Source: Escherichia phage FEC14
Length of the DNA stretch: 64,000 bases
Sequence record: MG383452
Direction: 5' to 3' (one strand)
Position numbers and translations under genes: made by a program. How positions within the stretch are numbered: the first letter of the stretch is position 1; each line of letters starts with the position of its first letter. The notes below the pieces were generated by a model. The model was not told the DNA's origin and made no database searches. It saw only the letters and a program-made list of their open reading frames with translations. Positions 4,550 through 62,728 of the stretch are shown here, in pieces.

Positions 4550-4652
4550 GGTGTAGTTCCTTCATTTCAGAGTCAGTGTTGTGCTGCTTATGGAATGAAG
4601 TATACGGGGTTTATTGAAGAAGTAAACCCCGTTTATTGAATAAATTTTAAAT

Positions 4653-6108: not shown

Positions 6109-6195
6109 GACTGATACTCCTGTTGTAAGAAAGTTATATCGTACAACAGGAATTGTTATTGAACTATTCGCGTATTAAATCGTTACGATAAACAA

Positions 6196-30866: not shown

Positions 30867-32999
30867 TCATATCAATCCGTAAATGACATTGTGTATTGCG
30901 ATACCACCAACAATAGAGGAAACATTGAAATTAATTTCAGCTTTGTAAGCTCCTGGCGGAACGCAATCCACCAAAGCATAAAAGTTGAACGTGTTTCCTA
31001 CTGGGATGTTATATCCTATGGAATCCGCGACAGCATTTCCTTGCTGGTCCAGGAATCTAATTGATGCCAGGGTGGTGGTTGTATTTTTAGCCCAAAAACC
31101 AAGTTGAAAATAACGCCCAGGCTCACAGTCAATGATTGTCTGGGTGAAATTAGCCGCTGCACCCACTGATGGTACGGATAAGACAAAAGAAGTTGAAAAC
31201 ATTAAATCATTAGGGACATCATTTCCTACAGTAGCGGTGACAACGCCGGATCCAGTTTGTGACAGCGCCCAGTTAGATATATTATTAAACTGTCCTGAAC
31301 CGTTACTAATACTGTTTATATGAGGGCTTACAATGCATCCTAAATCCCAGTTACTTGTGATAAATCCTGCGCGTGGATAGCAACCTCTAGACATTACTTT
31401 TTTACTTAATCCGCCTATCAACTGCCTTGTGGCAAATCCAGTAGCAATCGTTGTATTCCCATAGAGTGGTAGCGAACAATTATTTAGAATAACAACCCCA
31501 TCCCCGTTGTTTACAATAGGTACTGTAGAATAATCATTTGGCAACAGTATCGTCGAATCACTGATGCTTAATCGTGAACTACCATCCACAGTAAACCCAA
31601 CGAAACTCTGACCTGGTTGATACTCAATGTTACCGTTTGTGAAAACCATAGTTGCGTTATCAGATAACGCGACAACAGGGTCAAAATATCCTGATTTTTT
31701 ACCTGCTGGCAGAGAGCAGCTATCGAATATAAATTGACCATTAACAAACGTGAAAGGTCCACCGTTGTCAACCATCCAACAATGATTAAATTTTATAACC
31801 TCACCGGAATTCGCTGGTGAATTGAAAATAACAGAATTTGTAAAACTTCTGGACAACGTACATTTATCAAAAAGAATACGATATGCATTATCAAGAAACT
31901 CAATTCCGGCAGTTGAGATAAACCCGCAATTAGATATTCTTAACTCTGAGACTTCTCCACTGGTAGAACCACCGATCGCCAATTTCCTGGTCCCTTTTCC
32001 AACAAATGACACTCCAGTCATTAACGCAGTTGCGTTAATTACATCTCTATTGGTGTAATCCGTGTCTGTATTAACAATGGTTAGATAGTAGCCGCCCGTT
32101 GCAGATGCAGATTCTATTAGAGTACATTTATTTTTTCCAATAAGTGCACCTTTTGCTATATCAAAAATAATCGGTGTTGTTATCTCACCAGAAACAGGGA
32201 CTACACAGTCAAATCCGACGGCATTTATTTTATTGATGAATATAGCCAAATCTCCGGTTCCTGTATAACCAGCTTCGTACACATCCACCACACCGTTGAA
32301 TAATTTCCTTTTCCAAACGACACCATTGCCTTGGAAAGTAACGATATTATCTACCACAGTATCTGAGTTAACAGCCACCATAACACCGCCACCAAGATTA
32401 AACCCGTCAACATACGAATCAAGAATTATAGAATCACCAATTAATCCTGCTATTGATGATAATTCAGAAACTGATGATACGGTTCCTATATAAGATAAGC
32501 CATTCGGTTTATTTAAATTACTTTTCAGAGATGCAACACCAACACTCAACCATGCACCTAAACCAACGCCACCAGATGTTTCAGGTGTTGAGCCAGCATC
32601 GACAGTTTTAGGAAGTGAACCATCCCATCGATATTTTTTATCATCGTGAACAAGAAGTTCATTTTTCACATTAATGATATGGCCGAAATTAAAAGAACCA
32701 GGTAAAGTCACATATTCTTCGCGGCTTACTGCTAATTCCCCAAGGTCAACAGAGCCAGCGGAATGAGTGAGGATGGCTTGTTCGTTCAGGCTTATCGCAG
32801 TCGTTCCTGAAACAATACCCGAAGGAAGAGAATAAGCCCGTTGGGTAGACTCATCATAAATTACTTTAAATCCACCGAGATCAATACCGACAGTGAAATA
32901 AATGACTTCGTCTTCTTTGACACCGAAATTTCGAGCGATAGATTGTTTGTTAACTTCTATGGAAGTGGAGCCGCGTGGTTGATTGAATTGAGAAATCAT
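30867..32999 (-). CDS. tailspike protein 3
   Basis: N-terminus MISQFNQPRGSTSIEVNKQSIARNFG... is paralogous to the tailspike 1 N-terminal module; beta-helix-like body. Confidence 0.7.
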   Translation of the reverse strand: MISQFNQPRGSTSIEVNKQSIARNFGVKEDEVIYFTVGIDLGGFKVIYDESTQRAYSLPSGIVSGTTAISLNEQAILTHSAGSVDLGELAVSREEYVTLPGSFNFGHIINVKNELLVHDDKKYRWDGSLPKTVDAGSTPETSGGVGLGAWLSVGVASLKSNLNKPNGLSYIGTVSSVSELSSIAGLIGDSIILDSYVDGFNLGGGVMVAVNSDTVVDNIVTFQGNGVVWKRKLFNGVVDVYEAGYTGTGDLAIFINKINAVGFDCVVPVSGEITTPIIFDIAKGALIGKNKCTLIESASATGGYYLTIVNTDTDYTNRDVINATALMTGVSFVGKGTRKLAIGGSTSGEVSELRISNCGFISTAGIEFLDNAYRILFDKCTLSRSFTNSVIFNSPANSGEVIKFNHCWMVDNGGPFTFVNGQFIFDSCSLPAGKKSGYFDPVVALSDNATMVFTNGNIEYQPGQSFVGFTVDGSSRLSISDSTILLPNDYSTVPIVNNGDGVVILNNCSLPLYGNTTIATGFATRQLIGGLSKKVMSRGCYPRAGFITSNWDLGCIVSPHINSISNGSGQFNNISNWALSQTGSGVVTATVGNDVPNDLMFSTSFVLSVPSVGAAANFTQTIIDCEPGRYFQLGFWAKNTTTTLASIRFLDQQGNAVADSIGYNIPVGNTFNFYALVDCVPPGAYKAEINFNVSSIVGGIAIHNVIYGLI

Positions 33000-40618: not shown

Positions 40619-40728
40619 GTAGTTTTTACCTATTAATAAATCACGCTCCTATTTTGTTGGCCTTTAATTCAATAACACTTGTACGAATATAATAGTTTGG
40701 ACAAACAACCGTTATCAAGGAACCTCTC

Positions 40729-41301: not shown

Positions 41302-41358
41302 CGCTTTATTCAATAAATAATTGTAGTAAAGTTAGTTGCATGGAAGGGAGGGAACACT

Positions 41359-43858: not shown

Positions 43859-43888
43859 AACCAGTTGTTCAATAAACAATTGGTGAGT

Positions 43889-44089
43889 ATGATGAAAACG
43901 TTCGGTGATTTTCTTACTGAGTGGGATGGTCTCGCTACCGACAACAAAGAGATTGTTGAGTTTGTTGAAAAGCGAGGCGATAAGTGGGTTGTCCTTGACC
44001 ACACCAAGACTAAAGTTCTTGGGACACATGACACCAAAGCTGACGCGGACGCCCAATTAAGGGCGATCGAAGCGAATAAACATAGTTGA
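43889..44089 (+). CDS. small hypothetical protein
   Basis: ATGATG start with GGTGAG upstream; lies between two tRNA genes. Confidence 0.4.
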   Translation: MMKTFGDFLTEWDGLATDNKEIVEFVEKRGDKWVVLDHTKTKVLGTHDTKADADAQLRAIEANKHS

Positions 44090-46241: not shown

Positions 46242-46312
46242 TTTGTTCAATGAGGAAGAGGGGTTTAAAATTTAACCGTTTATAAACCCCTTCATTGATT
46301 TGAGGAAACAAC

Positions 46313-49881: not shown

Positions 49882-50439
49882 TTAGAGGCGGGAATCCAAC
49901 CATGCGTTCTTTTCATTCTGCCATTCCCAAGCGGCCTGACCACCTGCCATGATAACTTCCAGAGAAGGAGTATTGTCATCCTCGCCGCCGTGAAGATCTG
50001 GATCAAATCCATCATCTTCCGGATCATCTTCACATTCGTTCTGATATGCGGAATATTCAATATAATGCGCTTCGGCTTCGCAATCCATGTCTCCCAGAGC
50101 AGTCTCAAGAGTCATTTTACCTTCGGCAATCAGCTCAGCCGTTGCGTCGTCCAGACCTGCGTCTTTCGCTTCAACAAAGAGTTCATGACGTTTCTGGAAG
50201 AGAAAGAATTGCATGGCGGCAGAACGTGAATCAAAGAATTCTTGACGAGGAGCGGTGATATCACGCCCATCAATTTTACTTACCATCACGACACGAGAAC
50301 CGTACTCAACCAGGAAGCGACCGCCTTTTACGGGGTTGCTGCCGTCAACTGTGCCCAAAGTGGTGATTACACGGCCTTCTTCGGTGCCGAACAATACAGT
50401 TTTGCCGGATTTGGATTGAGCGATAATTTCGATTGCCAT
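49882..50439 (-). CDS. hypothetical protein with acidic C-terminus
   Basis: 185 aa from the internal ATG with AAGGA RBS; the track ORF extends upstream to 50619. Confidence 0.45.
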   Translation of the reverse strand: MAIEIIAQSKSGKTVLFGTEEGRVITTLGTVDGSNPVKGGRFLVEYGSRVVMVSKIDGRDITAPRQEFFDSRSAAMQFFLFQKRHELFVEAKDAGLDDATAELIAEGKMTLETALGDMDCEAEAHYIEYSAYQNECEDDPEDDGFDPDLHGGEDDNTPSLEVIMAGGQAAWEWQNEKNAWLDSRL

Positions 50440-50534
50440 GATGTATTTCCTTCTCTTCAGATTGTTGTTTGTTCGTACTACAATTAGAAGTATACGCCAG
50501 TTATTGAAGAAGTAAACTTTATTCAATAAATATT

Positions 50535-51440: not shown

Positions 51441-54437
51441 ATGACTGTTTTCTATACGAACGTTGCCCGACAGGGTAACGACCTTCTGATTCGTATTGCA
51501 GACGACAACGGCAATCGCCGTATGTTGCGTAAGAAATTCGAACCCACCTTGTATTTACCCACAGCCGATTATTCCAAAGTTGAAAAGATTGGCCTCCTCA
51601 ATGAACCGTTGGTGTCTAAAAAATTTGCGTCAATGCGTGACGCCGACAACTATCTGGAGGAATATAAGGAGGTCGAAGGCGCTGCCGTTTACGGACAAAC
51701 GGATTATGCATATCAATTCATAGCGCATAGTTTTCCTGGGATGATTACCCCCGATTACTCAAATATTCACATCGCCAACGTGGATATCGAAGTTTTCTCG
51801 GCTGGGTGGCGCGATGGAGAAATGACTAAAGGCCCATTTCCTCACGCGACGATTGAATCCCACACGTTTAAGGGGAGCGAGGCGCGTGTTCGCCGATTCC
51901 ATAAGCAAGTGTTGGCCAACCATGATTTCGTTCGAGAGCATTTCCCAGGTTCCTTTATTTCCAACAACGTGACTGACCAGTTCCCTATCATTGATAGTAA
52001 TGGTAAGATCACACAGAACATGAATGCAGCCTTCCCTATTACGCTCATCCAGCTTCAAGACATGAACACCAACAAGTTCTATGTCTGGGGTATGCCGTGC
52101 TCTAAGGATCGCCATAAATTCAAATATGATCCAAATGATGAAGAGATAGGTGGTCTTGAGGTTGAATACAAAGAATACACTACTGAACAAGAACTTCTTC
52201 GCGCTTTCTTAGATTATTGGTCTGAACGTCAATTTGATGGTTGGACTGGCTGGAACATCGAAACGTTTGATAGCCCGTACTTGGTTGAACGTATTACGCA
52301 GGTTCTCGGCGAAACCCAGGCAGAGCGCCTCAGTCCTTGGGGCAAACTCAAGAAACGTTTCATCAAAGACCGTAAAGGCGACGTGACTTCTTATCAATTC
52401 GTGGGTTGTCCTATGATGGACTACATGCAAGTTTACAAGAAACACACGTACACAACCCGCGAAAAATACTCACTGGATTGGATCGCTTATTGTGAACTCG
52501 GTGAGAAGAAGTTGGATTATAGTGAAAGCAAGTCATTGTATGATCTATATTTTAATGATTATTGCAAACACACCCGATATGGTATCAAAGACGTCAAACT
52601 CGTGTGGCGTTTAGAACAAAAGCTGCGTTTGATACAGCTGATGTTCGTATTGGCGTATCGCACCAAATCTAACTATGAAGACGGTCTTGGGACTGTAGCA
52701 CCATGGCTGGCGATGTGTTACTATCGTCTTTATGAAAAGGGGATTGTCCCTAAAATACAGCGTGTGTATGATGGTCCAACGGACTTTGAAGGCGCATATG
52801 TCATGGAGGTTGCACCAGGGATATATTTCTGGGTATTCTCTGAGGACTTAAACTCCCTGTATCCCCACATCATACAGCAATACAACCTTGGTCCTGAGAC
52901 TATCGTATCTGACAAGCACACACGTCGCGATATCATTGAGTCCATGTGTGAGGAATTAACCAAAGCGATGAATGATATGACAACGCCTATGAACAAGCGC
53001 CGTCATCTCAAAAATCTTCACGACAAGCTGCAGCGTGCTATTGATGAACGCATACAAGTTGTTGATGAATTGGTCGCGCTGGGTGAATTCCATTTTGAAA
53101 CATTACGTCGATATAACGTTTCGTTTACCCCGAACGTTCAGTTCTTCAGTAATGAGAAGATGTCCTTCCTTTCCGAAATTATGCGAGGCATATACGCTGA
53201 CCGTAAAGGAGAGAAAGCAACTGGCCTGAAGTATGAGCAATGGGCTGGTTGGTGTAAGGAAATGTCTAAAGGTGATTTCCACCTTGAATCCGCCATGAAG
53301 TCTCGTTTCTACGATCCTGAATGGTATGAAGAACACAAGCATATCGACCTTGATCACCTGACTGAAGTCATGCACAAGTGGGAAGATTTGGGAGTTGCCC
53401 AAGATACGTTACAACAAGGTCTGAAGATCTTGATGAACGCAGGATATGGTGCAATTTCTAACGTCTGGTTTAAAGAATACTTCAACATCAACATCGCTGA
53501 AGCAATTACCACTTCCGGCCAGCTGATCAACAAATGGAATAAACGACACACCGACGATTACCTCAACAAACTCTGTGGCACCACTGGTCAGGATTTTGTT
53601 ATCGCGGGTGATACTGACTCCAACTACATTTGCATTGAACGCCTGGTCAAGCAATTGTGGCCTGAAGAAAAGGACCATCACAAACTCGTTGATAACATTG
53701 ACCAATGGATCAAAGAGAATTACCAGCCAAAAACCAGTGAATGGGCGCAGTTGTTGTGTAATACCATGAACGGGTTTGAGCAGCGCATGGTCTGGGAACG
53801 TGAGGTCATCGCATCGTCTGCTGTATGGCGAGCCAAGAAGATGTATTGTATGGCAGTATACGATAGCGAAGGCATCAAGTATGAGAAACCAAAGATCAAA
53901 TTCAAAGGTCTGGAAGCGCGTAAATCAACCACTCCTGAGTGGTGTCGTGAGCGTCTGGTTAAATGTTATGAGAAAGTCCTGCTCGGTACTGAGGCAGAGG
54001 TTCAGGAATTAATCGCTGGATACAAAAAGGAATATATGGAACTCACCGTGGATGATATCGCTCAGGCATCTGGTGTGAGCGATATTGAGAAGTGGTTAGA
54101 CGCGAACGGGAATTACATCAGCGGTACGCACTTTGCTGCCAAGGCTTGTATTATGTACAACAAGTTGATCGATAAGCACGAAGATCTCGGTCTTCCCCCT
54201 ATCGAATCCGGTGATAAGGTTAAAATCATCAACCTGAAACCTGGCAATCCTGTGGGGAATGATCGCATAGCCTTCCCTGACTTCCTTCCTCCAGAATTGG
54301 GATTGGATAAATGGGTGGATTACCACACCACGTTTGAAAAGACCTTTATAGAGCCAATTCAGTCTATCTTGGATGTGGTTGGTTGGTCTCATAAACGTCG
54401 AGTTAACCTGTTGTCCATGATGGGCAAGAAAGGTTGA
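51441..54437 (+). CDS. DNA polymerase, family B (T4 gp43-like)
   Basis: Exo I DIEV, motif A DLNSLYPHII, motif B KILMNAGYG, motif C IAGDTDS. Start set at the ATG with GGAG RBS (track ORF begins upstream at 51282). Confidence 0.85.
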   Translation: MTVFYTNVARQGNDLLIRIADDNGNRRMLRKKFEPTLYLPTADYSKVEKIGLLNEPLVSKKFASMRDADNYLEEYKEVEGAAVYGQTDYAYQFIAHSFPGMITPDYSNIHIANVDIEVFSAGWRDGEMTKGPFPHATIESHTFKGSEARVRRFHKQVLANHDFVREHFPGSFISNNVTDQFPIIDSNGKITQNMNAAFPITLIQLQDMNTNKFYVWGMPCSKDRHKFKYDPNDEEIGGLEVEYKEYTTEQELLRAFLDYWSERQFDGWTGWNIETFDSPYLVERITQVLGETQAERLSPWGKLKKRFIKDRKGDVTSYQFVGCPMMDYMQVYKKHTYTTREKYSLDWIAYCELGEKKLDYSESKSLYDLYFNDYCKHTRYGIKDVKLVWRLEQKLRLIQLMFVLAYRTKSNYEDGLGTVAPWLAMCYYRLYEKGIVPKIQRVYDGPTDFEGAYVMEVAPGIYFWVFSEDLNSLYPHIIQQYNLGPETIVSDKHTRRDIIESMCEELTKAMNDMTTPMNKRRHLKNLHDKLQRAIDERIQVVDELVALGEFHFETLRRYNVSFTPNVQFFSNEKMSFLSEIMRGIYADRKGEKATGLKYEQWAGWCKEMSKGDFHLESAMKSRFYDPEWYEEHKHIDLDHLTEVMHKWEDLGVAQDTLQQGLKILMNAGYGAISNVWFKEYFNINIAEAITTSGQLINKWNKRHTDDYLNKLCGTTGQDFVIAGDTDSNYICIERLVKQLWPEEKDHHKLVDNIDQWIKENYQPKTSEWAQLLCNTMNGFEQRMVWEREVIASSAVWRAKKMYCMAVYDSEGIKYEKPKIKFKGLEARKSTTPEWCRERLVKCYEKVLLGTEAEVQELIAGYKKEYMELTVDDIAQASGVSDIEKWLDANGNYISGTHFAAKACIMYNKLIDKHEDLGLPPIESGDKVKIINLKPGNPVGNDRIAFPDFLPPELGLDKWVDYHTTFEKTFIEPIQSILDVVGWSHKRRVNLLSMMGKKG

Positions 54438-54469
54438 TTCAATAAACCAAAGGGGGATATAATTCCCCC
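54434..54469 (+). promoter_or_regulatory. sigma70-like promoter overlapping a hairpin (-35 TTGATT, 17-nt spacer, -10 TATAAT)
   Basis: ggTTGATTcaataaaccaaagggggaTATAATtccccc; the -10 sits in the loop of the gggggatataattccccc hairpin, directly after the polymerase stop. Confidence 0.4.
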
Positions 54470-54497
54470 TGTTATCCCTTTGACAACAGGTATTGTT

Positions 54498-54842
54498 ATG
54501 AAACTCAATAAGATTCTTCTGGTGTGTGCTCTGGCTTTCTCTACCACTGCATGCTCTACCCTTCTGGACGTTGCGTCTACTGTTGACCTCGATGCGCCGA
54601 CGTTCACCAATCAGCAAGCGGTGAATAAGATGGAAGACACCATCAAGGCACATGCGGCTTTGGACAACACCGCTCCTGGTCCGTTGCAAACTGTTTGCAA
54701 TTATGATGATTCCATCCAGGAAGATGAAACCTATCACTGCACCACTTACGTGAAGGAATCTTCTGTGGTTCTGTATGCAGATTGCACAGAAGAGCAATGC
54801 ACCGCAACTGGTTATGATCAAGTGGAGAAGTCTGATGAATAA
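54498..54842 (+). CDS. putative lipoprotein
   Basis: MKLNKILLVCALAFSTTAC: signal peptide ending in Cys with a lipobox-like context. Confidence 0.45.
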   Translation: MKLNKILLVCALAFSTTACSTLLDVASTVDLDAPTFTNQQAVNKMEDTIKAHAALDNTAPGPLQTVCNYDDSIQEDETYHCTTYVKESSVVLYADCTEEQCTATGYDQVEKSDE

Positions 54843-55617
54843 TCATGTTGGTCTGTATGATGCCAATTCTAAAATCGGTGGAATGTATCGTATCCTGGTA
54901 GACGTAGACTTGACTTTGGTTGATAGCCTCTCCCCTTGGGTGGATTGGTTTAATATTTCCAATTCAAAAGCTGCTGCGGAAAACATGGGTTGCCATGATT
55001 ATCCCAATGATTTCCAGCGTATCACCAAAGAGTGCTATATGGCTCATGCTGGTGATTTGGCGATCCTCATGCGGGAACGCGCTCACCCAGCATGGTTGAC
55101 ACGCCGTGTGTTTGTTGCTGGTCAATGGATGGATTCACCTACAGGACGTGATCCTATGGATTGGTGGCGCATGCCGGACCTGTATGCCAAGATGAACCCG
55201 CTTCCAGGCGCTTACGAGTTCCTGGTGAATCTGAAGAAGATCCTTCTCGAAGACTTTGAAAATGTTGAATTGATCGCAGTATCTAAGTGTGAGCCAGAAC
55301 ACGAGCGCAGCAAGCGCCAGTTTGTCTATGACAAGTTCCCTGGCATCTTCAACGGGTTCGTCAGCACCGACGAAAAGCATCTTTTGGCAGGTGATGTTTT
55401 AATTGATGATAACCCGAAATACGTTGAACCCTGTGCGATGAACAATATTTTTGTCATCTTTGTTCCCCAGGGAAATTATGAAAAACTGGATCTTTCGAAC
55501 TCGGAAGATATGCTTTATATTAAACCAGTCGAAGGCCAGAACCACTTCGACTTCCTGAACCGCAATATTGTCGAAGTGGTGAACCGCCTGATTGGCCATT
55601 ATCAATACGTCCATTGA
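54835..55617 (+). CDS. HAD-superfamily hydrolase-like protein (possible nucleotidase)
   Basis: ILVDVDLTLVD matches HAD motif I (DxDxT). ATG overlaps the upstream stop (ATGAATAA). Confidence 0.4.
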   Translation: MNNHVGLYDANSKIGGMYRILVDVDLTLVDSLSPWVDWFNISNSKAAAENMGCHDYPNDFQRITKECYMAHAGDLAILMRERAHPAWLTRRVFVAGQWMDSPTGRDPMDWWRMPDLYAKMNPLPGAYEFLVNLKKILLEDFENVELIAVSKCEPEHERSKRQFVYDKFPGIFNGFVSTDEKHLLAGDVLIDDNPKYVEPCAMNNIFVIFVPQGNYEKLDLSNSEDMLYIKPVEGQNHFDFLNRNIVEVVNRLIGHYQYVH

Positions 55618-55627
55618 GGAGGACATC

Positions 55628-55933
55628 GTGCAAGAACAATCCAAGTTTGGGGAAACCCCAGACAAGCGTTCCGGTGATAGCGATATGGATGGCGTTATTA
55701 TCCATGTGAACAACTTCATTCGTAAACAAACCACACCCACTTCCGTTGGTGCGGCGCTGGAGTTAAAGCGTGTTCTGATAGAAAACGGTATGGCACCAGA
55801 TGACGATGAAATTTTCTATAACTTCGACGACCAGTATAAAGTGAAGTTTGTAGAAAACGATCGCCCACAGGTTGCTGTTTTCTGGTCTCCCTGGTTGGGC
55901 GGTGTGAGCTGGCGTATTGAGGAAGATGCATAA
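55628..55933 (+). CDS. hypothetical protein (GTG start)
   Basis: GAGGAGGA RBS 6 nt upstream of GTG; the track ORF begins at a non-ATG codon at 55592. Confidence 0.4.
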   Translation: MQEQSKFGETPDKRSGDSDMDGVIIHVNNFIRKQTTPTSVGAALELKRVLIENGMAPDDDEIFYNFDDQYKVKFVENDRPQVAVFWSPWLGGVSWRIEEDA

Positions 55934-56838
55934 TGGCTAAAATAATTGTAGTGAAAGGAACAAGTGGCGTGGGCAAGGGTACGAGAGTAGTCCAGTTCAT
56001 CGAATGGCTCCGCACTAAGCTGGAGCCTACTGAACTCACCTACACCATTGGTGACAAGACGCGCCCATTCGGCCTGAAATTCGAAGAGCTGAAGTTAATC
56101 TTCGTCGGCCAGTATACTGTGTCCAACAAATCCGGTCTGGCTTCCTGGACTTCCATGGATGCTATTCATGCTGCCACAGGCTCGGGTGATATCGCCCGTG
56201 ATCTGGTCAAAGGCTGGCTGGCTCAGGGTTACACTTTGGTGTGCGAGGGTGAACCCCTCATGCTATCGGATAAATGGCGTCCTGAATGGATGTTCAAGAA
56301 CTATCCGATTGAATCTCTGGCGTTGCTTTATTTTGCATACCCAGACCGCTATCAGTATGATGCGCGCATCCGTGGTCGCTCTGGTAAGGAAGCGGGGGAC
56401 TCCGGCTGGTCACGCAACGAATCTTACTCCAAGGAGTTTGAGAAGTCGAAGACTGAAATGCTGGCGCTGGGTTGGGAAGTGGTGGTCAATGATTACAGCG
56501 GTCAAGACGTGTTGTATCGCCAATCGTCTACAAACACTCAAGAATTCAAAACAGGAAATGATAGCGAATTAGCCATGATGCCGTTTGATGCACCTTTGTG
56601 GGTGATTGGCAACGCTATTCATCATCAAATGCGTGGTGAGTTTCACGCCATGGGTCTGGACATCAAAGATTTCTACGGATTCTGTGAAACTGACCCAATG
56701 ACGCGTGAAGTCGGTGGGGATGATCCTCTAGCGCATCGAGTCCCTGAGAAGGCGACCAAATCTAAAACCAAGGCGAGCGCCAAGGGAGAGGTAACAAAGT
56801 CCTCTGTATCCCTTCTCGGCCTGTTGAGTAAGGGTTAG
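55933..56838 (+). CDS. P-loop kinase-like protein (candidate DNA/nucleotide kinase)
   Basis: Walker A VKGTSGVGKGT near the N-terminus; 301 aa; GAGGAAGA RBS. Confidence 0.55.
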   Translation: MAKIIVVKGTSGVGKGTRVVQFIEWLRTKLEPTELTYTIGDKTRPFGLKFEELKLIFVGQYTVSNKSGLASWTSMDAIHAATGSGDIARDLVKGWLAQGYTLVCEGEPLMLSDKWRPEWMFKNYPIESLALLYFAYPDRYQYDARIRGRSGKEAGDSGWSRNESYSKEFEKSKTEMLALGWEVVVNDYSGQDVLYRQSSTNTQEFKTGNDSELAMMPFDAPLWVIGNAIHHQMRGEFHAMGLDIKDFYGFCETDPMTREVGGDDPLAHRVPEKATKSKTKASAKGEVTKSSVSLLGLLSKG

Positions 56839-56840
56839 AA

Positions 56841-57044
56841 ATGAAACAGATGTCTAAATATTTTGTGTTCGTCGGATTGGTGATGTGTATCACAGCTGTG
56901 CTTGTCGGTGTCATGAAATATTTGGGCATCGTTGAGTTGGATTCAACCGAAATATTGAACGTTTACGCGTTATATTATTTGGGGGGTGCTATCTTATTAA
57001 CGCCTTTCGTCTATAACATAATTCAGAGTTTCAAAAGGAATTAA
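56841..57044 (+). CDS. small membrane protein
   Basis: 67 aa, mostly hydrophobic (two predicted helices). Confidence 0.45.
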   Translation: MKQMSKYFVFVGLVMCITAVLVGVMKYLGIVELDSTEILNVYALYYLGGAILLTPFVYNIIQSFKRN

Positions 57045-57045
57045 A

Positions 57046-57432
57046 ATGAAAATCCTCATTCCACGCAACGTTGTCGCTGTTGCTATTGATTACCGTGGTG
57101 ATGCGAAGATGATTAACGCTGTCCGTTATTATCCGGAACAGAATAAAATCGTCCCACAATTTCAACTGAATACCAATCCTTCTTCTAAGGATTTCGGTTC
57201 TTGGCGTCAGGTGGGTTTGGCTCGTACCCAAGTCAATGCCCAGCATTTTATTTCCGAAAAGACGAAAACCGCCAAGCAAATTTGGTTGGTGACGAATGAT
57301 CGTCGTTTCCTGCCTATCTGGTCTCTGGGACAGCCCGTAGTAAGCCCCGAAGAAATTCAGCTGGCTCCCGAAGCTGAGCCTGAAGTTGTTTCTCCTGTAG
57401 AGGAAGCGAAAGATGAAAATCAAGCAGGTTGA
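57046..57432 (+). CDS. hypothetical protein
   Basis: 128-aa ORF, AAAGGAA RBS. Confidence 0.5.
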   Translation: MKILIPRNVVAVAIDYRGDAKMINAVRYYPEQNKIVPQFQLNTNPSSKDFGSWRQVGLARTQVNAQHFISEKTKTAKQIWLVTNDRRFLPIWSLGQPVVSPEEIQLAPEAEPEVVSPVEEAKDENQAG

Positions 57433-57598
57433 TTTTATCTTCATGATGTTGATGTTCGTTATCTTTACGGTTTCGCTGGTCGGCGTCATGGTCACAGAAG
57501 GGGTGCAACAGCGCCCATTCTTGGTGATATGTCCTGTATCGATCGCCACTTTCTTCTATCTGGCGTTCCGTGTTGAACTCGGGAGTAAAATCGGATGA
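57413..57598 (+). CDS. small membrane protein
   Basis: 61 aa, hydrophobic; GAGGAAG RBS. Confidence 0.45.
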   Translation: MKIKQVDFIFMMLMFVIFTVSLVGVMVTEGVQQRPFLVICPVSIATFFYLAFRVELGSKIG

Positions 57599-58830
57599 TA
57601 CACATTTCTAAAATGCCGCAGGGATATAAAGCCCCTGAAAAATGGAAATACCCGATTGATCTGGCAGTAGATTATCGTAAGCCAGAAAATCGCATGTACC
57701 TGCTCAAGGCATGGGTGGAGGCGCTATCCTACACTGAAGAGCATAACCAGCAAGTCCGTCTGATGGATTATGCCATAGAGGTTACAGAAGGCATCACACA
57801 GCTCGAGAAGATCGAGCGCAAGATTTGGATGGCCTTTTTGTGGGGTTGTTGCTATAATGGGATTGGACCATGGACAATTTACAGTGAATTTCCTGTACCC
57901 CCACAATCTCCGAAAGAGTTTCAGCGATTTTCTGATTGGTATAACCTGAACTTTGATCGTATGCGCTTCGATACAGATTGTCGTTATCGTAAGTCGAAGA
58001 TGATTCCGTGCGTTCAGTCCTATATCGATTGGTTGGGTGGTAAAACCCAAATGGATTCTTTTCGTTGGATGTTGGAATGCACTACCAAGGAAGACCAGTT
58101 CACTGAACTGTGGAATACGGCGATGTCATGGAAATACTTCGGTCGCCTGAGCGCATGGAACTTCCTGGAAGCCCTGAACATGGTCTTCGGTAACATATGG
58201 GATATAGACGTCCCTGGTTTCATGTTGCGTGACCGTGATGGTAGCGAATCCAATCGTAACGGCGCGGCATTCTTATCCAACCGTGATGATTGGGTGACCA
58301 AGCACGGGAAGAAAAAGATCAACGGTTGTCCTATTACAGACGAAGAATGTGATATACTCGAAACCGACCTTGAGAAAGCGTTTCAGGAATGCGTTGAAGA
58401 GTTTGGCCACATCACGTTTATCAATCGTCTGAACTTTGAGACCTCCGGTGCTTGTTGGCTGAAGAAATTCTTCCGACTGAAGAATACCCGTTACATCGGG
58501 TGGGACGCCGAGCGTACATGGGACGAGATCGATTATATGGAACGTATTTGGCCTGAATACTCCTGTAAGGCATTATGGGAAGCCCGTTCACTCTGGCTAC
58601 CAGATACCCTGTTGTGCGAAAAAGCTCCTGCAGGGCACGTTCCTGGCGTCCAGAAGTGGAAGATGCCTGTGTTCTTTGAGACGGGTGTTCCTCTACATAT
58701 ATGGCATTTACAGCAGGGTACGCGTTGGGAACCATCTGAGGTTTACACTAATCTGAAAATGCCCGTCCGAAAGATAGAGGACAATCCGAAGTCGACCAGT
58801 GTAAACCTCATGTCTTTGTTGAAGCGCTGA
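57595..58830 (+). CDS. hypothetical protein (411 aa), candidate DNA-modification enzyme
   Basis: Large Trp/Cys-rich ORF two genes downstream of the P-loop kinase. I see no motif; the function is a guess from context only. Confidence 0.45.
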   Translation: MIHISKMPQGYKAPEKWKYPIDLAVDYRKPENRMYLLKAWVEALSYTEEHNQQVRLMDYAIEVTEGITQLEKIERKIWMAFLWGCCYNGIGPWTIYSEFPVPPQSPKEFQRFSDWYNLNFDRMRFDTDCRYRKSKMIPCVQSYIDWLGGKTQMDSFRWMLECTTKEDQFTELWNTAMSWKYFGRLSAWNFLEALNMVFGNIWDIDVPGFMLRDRDGSESNRNGAAFLSNRDDWVTKHGKKKINGCPITDEECDILETDLEKAFQECVEEFGHITFINRLNFETSGACWLKKFFRLKNTRYIGWDAERTWDEIDYMERIWPEYSCKALWEARSLWLPDTLLCEKAPAGHVPGVQKWKMPVFFETGVPLHIWHLQQGTRWEPSEVYTNLKMPVRKIEDNPKSTSVNLMSLLKR

Positions 58831-58866
58831 TATAAATATCCTCACCTATAAAGTGAGGATATTATC

Positions 58867-59034
58867 ATGTTACAAGATCTGTTGGTGTACGCGCTTCCTG
58901 GCGTTGTTGTCGGCTTCGTAGCTGGCGCTCTGGTCTTCCGTAAACACGCGCAAGACGGTGAAGTGATTGTTCAGAAGGGTAAAGACATCCTGGAACAAAT
59001 CGAAGCCAAACTGGACGAGCTGAAGAAAAAGTAA
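58867..59034 (+). CDS. small membrane protein (about 55 aa)
   Basis: My translation gives MLQDLLVYALPGVVVGFVAGALVF... followed by a charged tail; below ORF-track cutoff. Confidence 0.35.
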   Translation: MLQDLLVYALPGVVVGFVAGALVFRKHAQDGEVIVQKGKDILEQIEAKLDELKKK

Positions 59035-59050
59035 TCTGATTGCGATTGCG

Positions 59051-59100
59051 TTCTTCAATAAAGGGGAATGGGTTATTATTAGCCCGTTCCCCTTTCTTTT
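59051..59100 (+). promoter_or_regulatory. composite terminator-promoter (TTCTTCAATAAA box, hairpin with -10 TATTAT in the loop, T-tract)
   Basis: cgTTCTTCaataaaggggaatgggtTATTATtagcccgttcccctttcttttt; 17-nt spacing between TTCTTC and TATTAT. Confidence 0.4.
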
Positions 59101-59115
59101 TGCAAGGATTGATTT

Positions 59116-59307
59116 ATGACACCTCAATACAAAATATTGGTCACCAGCCGTTGTTATGCTTATGGACAGGGTGAAGCAATATCAGTACACACAGTTGTAG
59201 TTGATTTTGAAAACAAAGAACAAGCAGATTTGGCATTCTATAATATGCAGCAGAGCACGGCTCCTGCCGATATTGGCGTTAAACAAGTTTATACGAAATT
59301 ATACTGA
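59116..59307 (+). CDS. hypothetical protein
   Basis: 63-aa ORF, AAGGA RBS. Confidence 0.45.
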   Translation: MTPQYKILVTSRCYAYGQGEAISVHTVVVDFENKEQADLAFYNMQQSTAPADIGVKQVYTKLY

Positions 59308-59318
59308 GGTCCTATATC

Positions 59319-59540
59319 ATGGCAATGCAACGAATTGAAGACATGTCTGTGCTCGATATGGAAGCGACATTTGGCGACTATTTTGAATCTACCCCGAAAC
59401 AAGAAAAGGGTCATCTGGTAGTGTCGGAAGAGTTCGCACAAAAAGTTCAAGATACGCTTCCGACTAAATTGAACGGTGGGCAAGGCGGTTTCCGTCGCGG
59501 TGAACTGAATATCATCTGTGCCGGAGGGATTACGAGATGA
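59319..59540 (+). CDS. hypothetical protein
   Basis: 73-aa ORF. Confidence 0.45.
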   Translation: MAMQRIEDMSVLDMEATFGDYFESTPKQEKGHLVVSEEFAQKVQDTLPTKLNGGQGGFRRGELNIICAGGITR

Positions 59541-59923
59541 AGCGCCCCGAATACAAACAATATTTGTACGATCTGTTCATGAAAGAAACAGACGGCGTGT
59601 TACATCCTAAGAAAGCGACTATTGTTAAATTGCATTCTGAAGGTGATTTGTCTATAGCATATATCCGAAAAGAACTCGATTTGATGGGAATCGAATACGA
59701 AGACCACATCACGGATACACGTGCTTTAAAAAGAGAAACAGCAATCGTTCTTCATACCGTTGCAACAATTATGCATCGCCACCATGTTTCTTTTGACGAT
59801 GCAATAACTCCACAGTACCACGAAGAGCGCTGGGGACTGTTGTTGCAAAACGGTGCCAATCCCGAGCACAAAGATCAACTCCTTGGAATGACCAAGGCTC
59901 AACTTGTGGATGGTGTGTTATGA
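59537..59923 (+). CDS. hypothetical protein
   Basis: 128-aa ORF, GGAGGG RBS; ATGA overlap with the upstream stop. Confidence 0.5.
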   Translation: MKRPEYKQYLYDLFMKETDGVLHPKKATIVKLHSEGDLSIAYIRKELDLMGIEYEDHITDTRALKRETAIVLHTVATIMHRHHVSFDDAITPQYHEERWGLLLQNGANPEHKDQLLGMTKAQLVDGVL

Positions 59924-61029
59924 TCTACCTCCTGTTTGGTGTGCCACTGATACTAGCCATCCTGTTTGTGGTCTACCACCGCAAGACCCATGAGCCGAAA
60001 GAGACTCTGATGGCGACCGCGATTGTAGTGGTGCTGTCCTGTCTTATCCAGGCGGGAGCATACGCTGCATTTTCCCTGGGTAGTTCGGGAGATGTTGAAA
60101 TTTTGAATGGGTACGTTACTGACAAGCAACGAAATAAGGTGGGTTGTAGCCATTCTTATGAATGTATGTGCTATTACACAACTTCTTGCTCTGGTTCAGG
60201 AAATAACCGATCTTGTACACAAACGCGTCATTGCAGCACATGCTATGAGCACTCTTATGACGTTGATTGGGACGTATTAACAACCGTCGGTGATCTGAGC
60301 ATTGACCGTATTGATCGTCAGGGTACTACAGAGCCTCCGCGTTGGGCACAAGTTAAAATCGGGGAACCTGCGGCACGTGAACATTCATATATGAATTATG
60401 TGCTGGGCAACAAAGATTCATTATTCTCTAAATCTGACCAGCAATTCGCCGAGAAGTTCAAAGAGCATATCCCTTCATATCCGAGGGTGTATGATTATTA
60501 CCGAGTAACTCGTGTTCTGAATATGTCAGGGATGGACATTCCTGTTGATTACTGGAATGATTATCTGAACAATACTCTGAAAACATTAGGTGCTTCACGT
60601 CAAGTTAATATCGTTTGGGTTGTGACTTCTGGCCAGCCTGTTGAATATTTTCAGGGACTTCTATATGCATGGTCTGGCGGTAAAAAGAACGATGTTATTG
60701 TAGTCACCGATATTTCAAAGGATATGAAAATTAATTGGGGTAAGTCTACGTCATTTGCCGACGGCATGAACAACATGGAACTCCATTCTCGTAACGGACT
60801 TTCATTGACTGGGAAACCAATGGGCATATCAGTATTCCAAGAAGTTGCAGTCAATATAAGCAAAGGCTATAACCGCGTTGAAATGAAGGAAATGGATTAT
60901 CTGAAATGGCGTGACCTCAAGACATGGGAAGTGATTATCGTCGTTTTATTAGGTTGTGTTCCGTTTACCGCAATTTTCATATTAGGCCATATGCAGTACA
61001 ATGGTCGCACTTACAAACGTTTGTTTTAA
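59920..61029 (+). CDS. membrane protein with Cys-rich extracytoplasmic domain
   Basis: Hydrophobic segments at both ends (LLFGVPLILAILFVV... and ...VIIVVLLGCVPFTAIFILG) and a Cys-rich stretch CSHSYECMCYYTTSCSGSGNNRSCTQTRHCSTCYEH. Confidence 0.5.
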   Translation: MIYLLFGVPLILAILFVVYHRKTHEPKETLMATAIVVVLSCLIQAGAYAAFSLGSSGDVEILNGYVTDKQRNKVGCSHSYECMCYYTTSCSGSGNNRSCTQTRHCSTCYEHSYDVDWDVLTTVGDLSIDRIDRQGTTEPPRWAQVKIGEPAAREHSYMNYVLGNKDSLFSKSDQQFAEKFKEHIPSYPRVYDYYRVTRVLNMSGMDIPVDYWNDYLNNTLKTLGASRQVNIVWVVTSGQPVEYFQGLLYAWSGGKKNDVIVVTDISKDMKINWGKSTSFADGMNNMELHSRNGLSLTGKPMGISVFQEVAVNISKGYNRVEMKEMDYLKWRDLKTWEVIIVVLLGCVPFTAIFILGHMQYNGRTYKRLF

Positions 61030-61044
61030 CAAGAGGAAGTAAAG

Positions 61045-61614
61045 ATGTCGCAGCGTAAAGGTATTTCAATTGGTTGGATCATCGGTTTGGCGATTCTGGC
61101 TTTTGTTGTAATCTGTGTTGGTAGTTCCGTCAGTTATTTCAACGACTTCAACCGCACTGAGCAGCAGGTCAAGAAGTTCAACAAAGACTCCGAGAACTAC
61201 CTGAGCAACTACACGCTCAAAGTTCAGGAAACGGCGCAGATTCCTGACATGTACAAAGACGGCCTGAAGGAAGTGATCAAAGGTACATTCGAAGGGCGTT
61301 ATGGCGCTGATGGTTCCAAGGCTGTGATGCAGTGGATCCAGGAACAGAACATTCAGTTCGATTCCAGCCTGTACAAAGAGATCCAGGTTGTCATCAGCTC
61401 AGGCCGCGATGAGTTCCGTATCAGCCAGACCAAGAAGCTGGATATCTGTGCGATGTACGAGACCAAGCTGGCTCAGTTCCCTGGTTCGTTGATTGCTGGC
61501 GTGTTTGGATACCCGCGCATCGATCTTGACAAGACCTGCCAGGTGGTGAGCGATACCCGTACCCAGGCTGCGTTCGACGCCGGAATTCAGAAACCGATCA
61601 GCTTTAAAGGCTAA
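61045..61614 (+). CDS. LemA-like membrane protein
   Basis: N-terminal TM helix; C-terminal YETKLAQFPGSLIAGVFGYP resembles, from memory, the conserved C-terminal motif of the LemA family. Confidence 0.45.
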   Translation: MSQRKGISIGWIIGLAILAFVVICVGSSVSYFNDFNRTEQQVKKFNKDSENYLSNYTLKVQETAQIPDMYKDGLKEVIKGTFEGRYGADGSKAVMQWIQEQNIQFDSSLYKEIQVVISSGRDEFRISQTKKLDICAMYETKLAQFPGSLIAGVFGYPRIDLDKTCQVVSDTRTQAAFDAGIQKPISFKG

Positions 61615-61663
61615 TTCACAGTTAGCTCCAGGTGGAGCTAACCAAACCGAGTAAGGTGCTGTT

Positions 61664-61861
61664 ATGCCCACTGATAAATTTAGCTCTGTGTACACGACGC
61701 CTGCCAAGGAAACTTTGGTGAGCTTAGACCCCAGGGGAGTGGTGATAAAGCAGGTTGGGAGTGACGACAACGGGCGTCTTTATGACACCATTCTGTTGGA
61801 CATTGAATCTGCAAAGCATTTGCATGCTGTCCTTGGTGAAATTCTTAACTTAAAAGGCTGA
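61664..61861 (+). CDS. hypothetical protein
   Basis: 65-aa ORF. Confidence 0.45.
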   Translation: MPTDKFSSVYTTPAKETLVSLDPRGVVIKQVGSDDNGRLYDTILLDIESAKHLHAVLGEILNLKG

Positions 61862-61865
61862 TATC

Positions 61866-62294
61866 ATGAGCGTGAAACTGACTGAAGAAACTGCGTTGAC
61901 TTTGGTCCAACAGCAGATGTTCCTCGACGAAGTGGTTATCTCTGCGATCAAGCAGGGGATCATCCGTGACGACACACTGATCAACCGCCCGGAGATGATC
62001 CATCACCTGGTGGTGTGCCTGGGTGAAGCCAATCACCCTCGCAAGAAGATCGTGTTGTTCACTGATGGTGTGATTCATCCGAGCGGGAACTGCGCGTTCT
62101 TGGATGTGGTTGAACATCCGAACACGAAGGGTAAAGAGATCAAGACCTCTGTTCCGGTGACCCCATACACTGAGGGTGTTGACCAGCTGTCTTGGTTTGA
62201 GACGATCAACACCATCTATGTGATGGCGGTGGGTGGTCGACCTGTCCAAGACCTGCGCGGCGCTATTAAACCAGAGCCGAAAACTGAAGTCTAA
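61866..62294 (+). CDS. hypothetical protein
   Basis: 142-aa ORF. Confidence 0.5.
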   Translation: MSVKLTEETALTLVQQQMFLDEVVISAIKQGIIRDDTLINRPEMIHHLVVCLGEANHPRKKIVLFTDGVIHPSGNCAFLDVVEHPNTKGKEIKTSVPVTPYTEGVDQLSWFETINTIYVMAVGGRPVQDLRGAIKPEPKTEV

Positions 62295-62297
62295 TCG

Positions 62298-62343
62298 TTC
62301 TTCAATAAAAGGGGATAGGGTATTATTGCTCTATCCCCTTTTT
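62298..62343 (+). promoter_or_regulatory. composite terminator-promoter (TTCTTCAATAAA box, hairpin with -10 TATTAT, T-tract)
   Basis: cgTTCTTCaataaaaggggatagggTATTATtgctctatcccctttttc; same architecture as at 59051. Confidence 0.4.
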
Positions 62344-62344
62344 C

Positions 62345-62728
62345 ATGGACAGGAACATGACAGACAAGCCAAGAAAGATTGCGATTGTTGGAGCCGGACT
62401 GGGCTCTCGTACTATGGCCATTATCCTTCAAGAAAAGTTGAAAGGTGTTGAAGTAGAATGTATCAGTGTAGACGATATTCCTAAACGTCGTTGTGAACCA
62501 GGTGAACGCATGATAATTTGTGATGATCTGGTAGAAAGTGAACGCAAAACATTGGTATCTCAAGCGGTGGCTCAGTTACGGAAGGCAGATATTTCGTATT
62601 GTGAAGCAGAAGCCGATTACAGGGACATAATTGCGTCACAACGTTATCAAAAGCCGCCGCGCCTATATGGAGCCGCCCAACATAAACGTCAGGCTAAGAA
62701 ATATAAAAATCGGAGTAAACGAAAATGA
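62345..62728 (+). CDS. hypothetical protein with N-terminal GxGxxG-like motif
   Basis: KIAIVGAGLGS near the N-terminus, but the protein is too short for a full Rossmann domain. Start could be the second ATG at 62357. Confidence 0.4.
   Translation: MDRNMTDKPRKIAIVGAGLGSRTMAIILQEKLKGVEVECISVDDIPKRRCEPGERMIICDDLVESERKTLVSQAVAQLRKADISYCEAEADYRDIIASQRYQKPPRLYGAAQHKRQAKKYKNRSKRK

Follow-up and report, generated by a model that had tools for sequence, protein, structure and literature searches.

Candidate promoter-terminator cassettes sharing a family-specific upstream box in a ViI-like phage

The window (the whole analysed stretch of 64,000 nt from Escherichia phage FEC14, record MG383452) is a Kuttervirus segment, of the ViI/CBA120-like Ackermannviridae. 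Three composite elements, S1, S2 and S3, were found on its plus strand where a preliminary description of the sequence had put them; the rechecked coordinates are given in Table 1. Each element follows a stop codon at a distance of 0-16 nt, and 14-28 nt separate the end of its hairpin or T-tract from the next start; the flanking genes are on the plus strand. A position directly after the stop codon, as described earlier, was observed for S1, while S2 starts 16 nt past the stop.

Table 1. Coordinates of the cassettes S1-S3 and of further members and candidates in the window.
Feature	Position	Strand	Remarks
S1 cassette	54438..54470	+	right after DNA polymerase stop TGA 54435-54437
S1 box TTCAATAAA	54438-54446	+	11-nt spacer 54447-54457
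S1 stem AGGGGGA/TCCCCCT	54451-54457 / 54464-54470	+	5' arm within spacer
S1 -10 TATAAT	54458-54463	+	forms the loop; next gene ATG 54498
S2 cassette	59051..59103	+	after small membrane-protein gene; stop TAA 59032-59034
S2 TTC+TTCAATAAA	59051-59062	+	box itself 59054-59062
S2 16-bp stem	59060-59075 / 59080-59095	+	16-pair terminator match
S2 -10 TATTAT	59074-59079	+	spans stem top and loop
S2 T-tract TTTCTTTTT	59093-59101	+	next gene ATG 59116
S3 cassette	62298..62343	+	stop TAA 62292-62294
S3 TTC+TTCAATAAA	62298-62309	+	box itself 62301-62309
S3 stem	62307-62322 / 62327-62342	+	
S3 -10 TATTAT	62321-62326	+	
S3 T-run TTTTT	62339-62343	+	next gene ATG 62357; in-frame ATG 62345
Hairpin-less member TTCAATAAC-N11-TATAAT	40668..40693	+	61 nt upstream of ATG 40729; fold z -0.3
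Candidate member TTCAATAAA-N11-TATGAT	43868..43893	+	17 nt after tRNA-Met
Candidate composite, degenerate box TTCAATGAG-N11-TAAAAT	46246..46300	+	hairpin -18.6 kcal/mol; ATG 46313
Member TTCAATAAC (6163-6155), N11, TACGAT (6143-6138)	6120..6163	-	hairpin z -5.3; ATG 6108

The RNA folding energies of S1, S2 and S3 were -14.1, -26.5 and -24.3 kcal/mol (z -2.5, -6.2 and -7.5), and none of 200 shuffles matched these folds. The form of an intrinsic terminator, a GC-rich hairpin in sense orientation downstream of a gene and directly followed by a U-tract, was observed for S2 (TTTCTTTTT) and S3 (TTTTT). A T-tract had been described for S1 as well, but the tail there (GTTATCCCTTTG) is not a proper one; the S1 tail GTTATCCC has no U-tract in FEC14 and in Taipeivirus is T-rich only. 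Judged from these sequences, the terminator half of the proposed dual hairpin appears convincing in S2 and S3; in S1, which has no U-tract in FEC14, it appears weak. The leader of S1 also has a second conserved hairpin, positioned over its ribosome-binding site.

The hexamers TTGATT (S1) and TTCTTC (S2, S3) had been regarded as the key upstream element, at 17 nt from the -10-like hexamer as in a sigma70 promoter. The spacer is 17 nt in S2 and S3 but 18 nt in S1, and none of the three has a canonical sigma70 -35 (TTGACA-like, at 16-18 bp): TTCTTC matches TTGACA at only 2/6 positions and TTGATT at 4/6, with 10/12 consensus matches for the S1 pair TTGATT-18-TATAAT as a whole. Conserved instead is a 9-mer, TTCAATAA(A/C), located exactly 11 bp upstream of a -10-like TAnnnT hexamer, at roughly -32 to -24 and centred near -28.

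Box-N11-TAnnnT was found far above chance in both the window and the CBA120 genome (156.6 kb). The window had 11 occurrences of TTCAATAAA against 1.35 expected and six of TTCAATAA-N12-TANNNT against 0.05 expected, a count reached in 0/100 shuffles. In CBA120, 10 of the 44 TTCAATAA boxes had TAnnnT at exactly N=11, compared to about 0.5 expected from a background of 0.010-0.015 TAnnnT per position (binomial 7e-10); all other spacings had 0-3 TAnnnT each. The distance from box to -10 was 11 bp in every member with a perfect box and 10-13 bp in the degenerate members.

The ten perfect-box N=11 sites of CBA120 were all oriented toward the next gene; nine were intergenic, one was located at the extreme end of a coding sequence, and for eight the distance from the beginning of the site to the following start codon was 53-63 nt. 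The -35 position (17 bp) of these sites reads NNNTTC in the sequences and PWM columns, with no TTG consensus, and the extended -10 (TGn) was absent from the sites inspected in this set. The named genes downstream of the CBA120 boxes (nrdA, the ligase block, the gp59-loader block and the RNAP ADP-ribosylase) belong to DNA or nucleotide metabolism or to RNA-polymerase modification; the remainder are hypothetical, and known virion genes were not seen downstream of the CBA120 box sites. A different motif, CTAAATA, accompanies many structural genes.

Besides S1-S3, the window has further members and candidates of the class (Table 1). The 40668 site is located where transcription diverges. Two boxes had been noted earlier as related. 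One of them, at 43868, has the same distance between box and -10; the box is within the loop of a small hairpin (CCAGTTG/CAATTGG), and membership is less certain since in the CBA120 annotation a start codon falls on the -10. The other, at 41309, lacks this distance to a -10 and sits in a perfect palindrome, TTTATTCAATAAA. At 6120-6163 the ribosome-binding site is also part of the hairpin, which has no T-tract, so some hairpins may serve other roles.

The TTCAATAA box was also observed in palindromes and, with the spacings N=5 and N=8, within early-like promoters; therefore, it may have more than one role. The early-like promoters make a separate class in the same genome, with a proper TTTACT -35 at 16-17 bp, and those at 4626-4599 and 50516-50489 carry the box inside the spacer. 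Perfect palindromes TTTATTSAATAAA are present at 4632, 41305 and 50518 (0.17 expected, with one mismatch allowed), and S1 is a palindrome with one mismatch.

In 9 of the 18 candidate sites the -10 was at the centre of a strong hairpin (z <= -3), and the rest had a weak one or none; clear hairpin-less examples in CBA120 are the sites 133395, 26056, 27977 and 85281. A GC-rich hairpin made of the spacer and the start region, with the -10 in its loop, was seen at S1-S3 and at about six other loci in CBA120. Among the 21 gene-sense terminators of CBA120 with a hairpin and a T-tract, 15 were plain, having 6-10 bp stems and mostly tetraloops, while six had a -10-like loop. The box was present in 5/6 of the latter, compared to a box-like match in 1/15 of the plain ones (Fisher p=0.0017). 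In the early promoters of phage N4, an extruded DNA hairpin is the recognition element for the phage (virion) RNA polymerase, and the promoter sequence lies within an inverted repeat, as in the cassettes here. However, about half of the predicted box promoters have no significant hairpin, so the hairpin would be an overlay and not the signal, unlike in N4.

The box, N=11 and TAnnnT of S1-S3 are kept in Kuttervirus, Agtrevirus, Limestonevirus and Taipeivirus. The stem-loops are preserved in the four genera, with changes in both arms (GGGG..CCCC to GGG..CCC; wobble replacements), and the -10 of S2 drifts among genera (TATTAT, TAATAT, TATATT). In Serratia phage IME250, the orthologue of the 40668 site retains the box at N=11 from TATAAT, and its spacer is wholly different; the CBA120 box promoters of the gp59 block, ligase and gp41 are not conserved in this phage. 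The 43868 candidate is conserved in Taipeivirus loci. In earlier annotation, Table S2 of AG3 lists S1 as the sigma70 promoter Porf237 (annotated early) and the S2 orthologue as the terminator Torf248, and the orthologous S3 hairpin is annotated as 'terminator' in the Salmonella phage Mooltan record. The annotators made these calls, of S1 as a promoter and of S2 and S3 as terminators, independently.

Similar cassettes have been described in T4-like phages. The PeSLs of RB49 and phi1, where a stem-loop overlaps the -10, acted both as promoters and as terminators when fused to lacZ (Arbiol et al. 2010, PMC2839356), and the 'PmSLs' of phage nt-1 are made of a Mot-box, TATTAT and a stem-loop (Comeau et al. 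2014, PMC4122927); cassettes of these kinds are known from RB49, phi1, PST/T4 and nt-1/KVP40 (PMC2839356, PMC4122927). Like these, the elements described here combine a promoter with a GC-rich stem-loop as terminator or attenuator (both activities being predicted here), have an upstream element and a -10 at fixed spacing, and carry a stable stem-loop at the promoter, commonly in the interval from the upstream element to the -10, or over the -10. They are also intergenic and oriented with transcription, between the upstream stop and the ribosome-binding site or start of the following gene, and share with the PmSLs a -30 box and a TATTAT -10. On the other hand, the upstream element is TTCAATAA(A/C), in place of the sigma70 -35 of the PeSLs or the PmSL Mot box TGCTT, and CBA120 has about 9 composite sites compared to about 50 per genome in RB49/phi1. 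A term search of Comeau et al. 2014 (PMC4122927) gave no mention of Ackermannviridae, and we found no literature report of PeSL/PmSL-type cassettes in ViI-like phages.

T4 middle promoters have a MotA box, (a/t)(a/t)(a/t)TGCTTtA, at 12 +/- 1 bp from the -10 (Hinton 2010, PMC2988021). The box sites resemble them in having a good sigma70 -10 (TAnnnT) without a -35, a phage-specific box of 9 bp at a comparable distance (11 bp, rarely 10-13), and a location upstream of replication and nucleotide-metabolism genes. They differ in the box, which is unrelated to the MotA box, in TGn, present in about half of the T4 promoters and at none of the sites inspected here, and in that no MotA/AsiA homologue was detectable: with the T4 proteins MotA/AsiA as phmmer queries, the best E-values among the ORFs from all six frames of CBA120 and of the window were 3.1 / 0.58. 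That CBA120 has neither MotA nor AsiA was also stated in PMC3184105. The Pfam matches listed included no box-binding protein, and searches of PHROGs and PDB sequences for a box reader among early-gene candidates gave nothing informative. The phage encodes a RegA-like translational repressor.

We consider it probable that S1-S3 are compact promoter-terminator cassettes of ViI-like (Kuttervirus) phage, in which a box promoter overlaps a hairpin. The box and -10 sites we take to be a class of promoters arranged like the MotA-type middle promoters of T4. With no TTG consensus at 17 bp and a conserved box at 11 bp, they are probably not ordinary sigma70 -35/-10 promoters and would probably need a phage factor. 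Promoters of this family-wide class would have TTCAATAA(A/C) near -28 and, 11 bp downstream, a sigma70-type TAnnnT -10, with neither a -35 nor an extended -10; the host sigma70 RNA polymerase would read the -10, while the box would be read by a putative phage factor that is not a MotA/AsiA homologue. In the cassettes, the 11-bp spacer and the region from -6 to +10 form an inverted repeat. RNA arriving from upstream would fold into a GC-rich hairpin whose loop is the -10 hexamer, the AAA of the box would pair with the start of the following T-tract, and the resulting intrinsic terminator is predicted to be strong at S2 and S3 and weak at S1. Transcripts from the cassette's own promoter would start within the 3' arm and, having no 5' arm, would escape termination. 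With a terminator and a promoter of its own, a cassette would thus insulate the downstream block from read-through and put it under box control. These elements are best read as in the earlier proposal: one hairpin could terminate the upstream transcript while, at the DNA level, its loop would hold the -10 of the promoter for the following gene. This matches the tested PeSL cassettes (PMC2839356), with the weaker terminator half at S1. The cassette architecture is already known from T4-like phages; the cassettes here would use a family-specific promoter box, and we found no earlier description of TTCAATAA(A/C) as a promoter box in the literature. A GC-rich discriminator followed by a U-rich initial transcript is untypical of strong promoters and is a point against the promoter reading.

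The sites could instead be ordinary early promoters of the host sigma70 with stem-loops (strict PeSLs), the box being a family-specific spacer or upstream sequence with no activator and no middle class. The PeSLs of RB49/phi1 are indeed strong sigma70 promoters in uninfected E. coli (PMC2839356), the S1 hexamers match 10/12 and were annotated as early sigma70 in AG3, and the search for an activator gene found none (for Pfam, among the matches listed). Still, we think this unlikely given TTCTTC at 17 bp in S2 and S3, the NNNTTC at the -35 of the ten CBA120 sites with no TGn where inspected, and the separate class with TTTACT in the same genome. Only one upstream element is conserved, and with a gap of 11 bp to the -10, or 14 bp on counting TTCAAT as the hexamer, it lies nearer than region 4 of sigma70 could accommodate. 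Less probable again is that the elements are plain intrinsic terminators, with AATAAA as an upstream A-tract (bidirectional) and -10-like loops arising by chance. S2 and S3 do look like textbook terminators with a GC-rich 10-16 bp stem, a U-tract and a 5' A-run that can pair (the AAA of the box with the T-tract), and the box complement on the minus strand, TTTATTGAA, would give S1 a T-rich tail. However, the loops are AT-rich -10 hexamers and not the tetraloops of most plain terminators, only one of the 15 of which has a box-like match; S1 has no U-tract, box-N11-TAnnnT is present at hairpin-less sites, the box unit is at a fixed distance from start codons, and terminator constraints cannot yield the spike at N=11.

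A repressing or DNA-organising protein of phage or host could also use the box as its operator, for example as a dimer on TTTATT(G/C)AATAAA, with repression and not activation as the outcome. The three perfect palindromes, the near-palindrome of S1 and the boxes in early-like spacers (a protein bound there would stand in the way of RNA polymerase) are consistent with such a role. The N=11 boxes, though, are mostly half-sites, and these sites have no other upstream promoter element and would hardly fire without help from the box, which makes this explanation improbable. The least probable, in our view, is an element acting in RNA (processing, stability, or a translational-control hairpin after an AU-rich single-stranded site) and not a DNA promoter. 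The hairpins over ribosome-binding sites at 6120-6163 and in the S1 leader, and the RegA-like repressor, would fit it, but the spacing to TAnnnT is strict and DNA-type even at sites that do not fold, and these elements matched no Rfam family.

The promoter-class reading may be extended, tentatively and with some doubt, to a T4-like early-to-middle switch in enterobacterial Ackermannviridae, in which an unrelated putative factor would both activate and shut off promoters. On TTCAATAA at about -28 it would activate the promoters that have no -35; on the box within the spacers of early TTTACT promoters it would shut these off, as it would from the TTTATT(G/C)AATAAA palindromes just upstream of early promoters. 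The hairpin cassettes would be gates for early read-through, so that each gene block obeys the switch.

According to the papers on the ViI-like phages CBA120 and AG3, it was not possible to assign their early and middle promoters, and MotA and AsiA are absent. The motif with its fixed 11-bp spacing points to about 15 specific candidate promoters in each genome, is conserved in four genera infecting Salmonella, E. coli, Shigella, Dickeya, Klebsiella and Serratia, and could serve as bait in a search for the factor reading it. Since ViI-like phages are widely used in biocontrol and therapy, their temporal programme matters for engineering.

The PeSL/PmSL idea would thereby extend past the T4-like phages, to self-insulated promoter-terminator cassettes that are possibly hot spots of gene shuffling. 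PeSL/PmSL cassettes flank small variable ORFs. Around S2 the flanking genes differ between genera, with gain and loss on both flanks; the neighbours of S1 and S3 are conserved.

The three cassettes S1, S2 and S3 were found at the positions reported for them in the preliminary description, all coordinates having been re-read in the sequence. The pattern is genuine and far from what chance would produce. RNA folding energies were -14.1, -26.5 and -24.3 kcal/mol for S1, S2 and S3, with z-scores of -2.5, -6.2 and -7.5, respectively. The region is bounded by the DNA polymerase gene and rIIA, and small, mostly unnamed genes of the + strand fill the stretch between the two. We observed that 273 phage records match window positions 54000-62500, which are 96.5% identical to Salmonella phage PLL1. 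Nearly all of these records belong to Ackermannviridae, with Salmonella, Escherichia, Klebsiella, Dickeya, Shigella and Serratia as host genera. The genomic DNA of ViI-like phages contains hypermodified thymidines.

Positions and make-up of the cassettes and of other promoter-like or hairpin features in the window and in related phages
Feature	Position	Strand	Make-up or remark
Cassette S1	window 54438-54470	+	directly after TGA, in order TTCAATAAA, ccaa, AGGGGGA, TATAAT, TCCCCCT
Cassette S2	window 59051-59103	+	in order TTC, TTCAATAAA, 16-bp stem with TATTAT in its top and loop, TTTCTTTTT
Cassette S3	window 62298-62343	+	in order TTC, TTCAATAAA, 16-bp stem around TATTAT, TTTTT
Early-like promoters	window 4626-4599, 50516-50489	-	TTTACT-N16-TATACT, TTCTTCAATAA(A/C) in spacer
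Hairpin around early-like promoter	window 4644-4599		10 bp, ACGGGGTTTA/TAAACCCCGT
Perfect 13-bp palindromes	window 4632-4644, 41305-41317, 50518-50530		TTTATT(G/C)AATAAA
Box site at orf223 homologue	window 43868-43893		-10-like TATGAT
S1-leader hairpin	window 54468-54490		CCTGTT...AACAGG
Further early-like promoter copies	CBA120 62089, 30516, 56234		
Virion-gene motif, examples	CBA120 108039-108090, 124039-124110, 133104-133170		CTAAATA(C/T), in some cases TATAAATA
Box variant before gp41 helicase gene	CBA120 31212-31290	-	TTCAATAAT-ggtgatcataggg-TATAAT (N=13)
Protein annotated 'RNA polymerase sigma factor'	Vibrio phage D492 15891-17693		600 aa, adjoins DNA polymerase gene

Each cassette had been described as a hairpin followed by a T-tract, with the -10 hexamer of a sigma70 promoter in the loop, 17 nt after an upstream hexamer. 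Both the spacing and the T-tract fail in S1, where the spacer is 18 nt and no real T-tract follows. As a promoter hexamer, TTCTTC is a very poor -35, with two of six positions matched. A sigma70 -35 (TTGATT or TTCTTC at 17 bp) was rejected as the common element, since S1 alone has a fair hexamer, and that at 18 bp.

The 9-mer box TTCAATAAA, present in all three cassettes, occurs 11 times in the window compared to 1.35 expected. We assembled the related phage CBA120 (156.6 kb) with its annotation and plotted the distance from every TTCAATAA to the next TAnnnT, counting only hexamers with at least four of six matches to TATAAT. A single spike emerged: the hexamer stood exactly 11 bp after the 9-mer (N=11) in 10 of the 44 boxes (about 0.5 expected, binomial 7e-10), with all other distances at 0-3. 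The window has six such sites against 0.05 expected. All ten perfect-box sites of CBA120 face the gene that follows. One of them falls at the extreme end of a coding sequence and the other nine between genes; eight start 53-63 nt upstream of the next start codon. Thirteen sites were used to derive a weight matrix, which recovered its seeds in CBA120 and two further intergenic matches with scores above 17, while the sole coding match had the lowest of the listed scores (14.7). Named genes downstream of the CBA120 box sites include nrdA, the ligase block, the gp59-loader block and the RNA-polymerase ADP-ribosylase; no known virion gene follows a perfect-box site. The box/-10 sites have no -35, those inspected have no TGn, and the box centre is near -28.

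Given the 11-bp spike, the orientation, the distance to the start codon and the presence of other motifs at other genes, the box/-10 unit behaves as a distinct putative promoter class. A T4-type late promoter was considered as the identity of the unit and rejected, because a different motif, CTAAATA or TATAAATA, precedes many structural genes. The CTAAATA(C/T) motif is found upstream of many CBA120 virion genes, some 20-45 nt from the start codon, and is likely a late-promoter motif for the gp55-like sigma; ahead of the tail-fibre and tailspike genes a conserved hairpin, ACCCCATA...TATGGGGT, is joined to it. A third set of motifs, TTTACT-N16/17-TATA(A/C)T, equals the early consensus TTTACW-N17-TAYWAT reported for T4/PST (PMC4122927). 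Both window copies of this early-like promoter are followed by a shared leader ending in ...GGAA(C/A)TACA(C/T)CATG.

Two individual box sites deserve a separate remark. At window position 43868, the -10-like hexamer overlaps the annotated start codon of the homologue of CBA120 orf223; either this start is wrong or the box serves the downstream tRNA genes and not the ORF. At the gp41 site of CBA120, an 8-bp hairpin (GATCATAG/CTATGATC) with no T-tract has the -10 in its loop.

The hairpin is an overlay on the box/-10 unit. Nine of 18 candidate CBA120 sites fold into a strong hairpin (z <= -3) whose loop contains or adjoins the -10, namely S1-S3 and those before orf130, orf156, orf140, orf074, orf227 and orf184; at the remaining sites the hairpin was weak or not significant. 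Among 21 gene-sense intergenic terminators of CBA120 (hairpin plus T-tract), 15 are plain, with stems of 6-10 bp and mostly GAAA/TTCG-type tetraloops, and a box-like match occurs in one of them. In the remaining six the loop resembles a -10, and the box accompanies five of these (Fisher p=0.0017). In the composite sites the AAA of the box is base-paired to the opening Ts of the T-tract. The 5' arm is formed by the 11-bp spacer, the loop by the -10 and the 3' arm by the region around the expected start. With this geometry, a transcript starting 6-9 nt past the -10 would begin within the 3' arm and would therefore be unable to form the terminator itself. The promoter/terminator scan did not call S3 a terminator, probably because A-U pairs swallow the T-tract; a separate scan found the CBA120 orthologue of S3. 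An Rfam search of the window for known RNA families returned three tRNAs only.

A second small hairpin, in the S1 leader, spans the ribosome-binding site of the following gene, where it might control translation. Its stem is kept in three genera and degraded in Taipeivirus; its loop carries a perfect TTGACA that is kept in four genera.

S1-S3 are nearly invariant across Kuttervirus, Agtrevirus (AG3) and Limestonevirus (Ds3CZ), despite an identity to the window of only about 82% in the AG3 and Ds3CZ regions, which align over 68-80% of their length. Box, 11-bp spacing and a TAnnnT hexamer all persist in Taipeivirus (Klebsiella FKP10, Serratia IME250), the -10 of S2 having changed to TATATT; the stems there have either lost one G with its matching C or kept pairing by G-U. 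At the hairpin-less site 40668, box and TATAAT are kept in IME250 with an unrelated spacer; some CBA120 box members are not conserved in IME250. Vibrio phage D492, with a DNA polymerase 47% identical, shows a plain hairpin following that gene, with neither box nor N=11 signal; the box motif thus does not extend to every member of the wider group. D492, which encodes the protein annotated as a sigma factor and lacks the TTCAATAA-N11 signal, may use a different transcription strategy. A scan of IMG/VR with TTCTTCAATAA-N12-TATNAT gave mostly unrelated contigs, the pattern being too loose for that database, and was not used.

Gene content around window positions 59034-59540 differs by genus on both sides, and the S2 cassette itself stays. 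According to the annotation tables, orf252 lies 3' of S2 in all four genera; Kuttervirus has orf250-251 ahead of it, Agtrevirus and Limestonevirus have orf251, and Taipeivirus has neither. In this comparison orf250 was found only in Kuttervirus, and orf249, upstream of S2, is absent in Taipeivirus.

Composite cassettes of this kind are known in T4-like phages. PMC2839356 describes the PeSLs of RB49/phi1 as promoter/stem-loop cassettes, with the stem-loop mostly between -35 and -10 or overlapping the -10, reporter fusions demonstrating promoter and terminator activity, and a proposed role in the shuffling of small flanking genes. The gene turnover beside S2 would be in line with this last proposal. 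In phage nt-1 the 'PmSLs' join a stem-loop to a Mot box and a TATTAT -10 (PMC4122927). ViI-like phages are mentioned neither there nor in the available part of PMC2839356. In T4 middle promoters, 12 +/- 1 bp separate the MotA box and the -10 (PMC2988021), a geometry shared by the box/-10 unit with its 11 bp.

Parts of the cassettes had been annotated: a supplementary table for AG3 gives S1 as a putative sigma70 promoter, S2 as a terminator and, uncommented, a promoter and a terminator that overlap at the orf074-type site; S3 is labelled a terminator in the GenBank record of Mooltan. In the literature searched, we found neither a description of the box motif nor an Ackermannviridae transcript map. 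The AG3, CBA120 and LIMEstone1 genome papers do not describe the motif, and two of them state that early and middle promoters are unidentified. The promoter plus stem-loop architecture itself is already known. Judged from sequence, S1-S3 are PmSL-like candidate cassettes, but in a new phage family, with an undescribed -30 box and no MotA/AsiA. Dual function, as proposed in the preliminary description, is the best explanation of the evidence, with a promoter anatomy different from the one suggested there; promoter activity, termination and the requirement for a phage factor are all putative.

T4 MotA and AsiA had no match when CBA120 and the window were translated in all six frames, in agreement with Kutter et al. 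2011 (PMC3184105). Searches with annotated regulators and the first genes behind early-type promoters against Pfam (eight proteins), PHROGs (ten) and PDB sequences produced no box-binding candidate, and a Pfam search of 137 small CBA120 proteins gave no such lead among the best 25 of 69 families. The first candidates for a box reader would be the proteins encoded behind TTTACT-class promoters, among them those of window ORFs 4085-4549 (-) and 49882-50439 (-). The window has three perfect palindromes, compared to 0.17 expected with one mismatch allowed; two of them are just upstream of early-like promoters, and S1 (TTGATTCAATAAA) is a one-mismatch copy. The palindrome resembles the operator of a dimeric protein. 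Together with the box that lies in the spacers of two early-type promoters, the palindromes hint that such a protein has more than one role.
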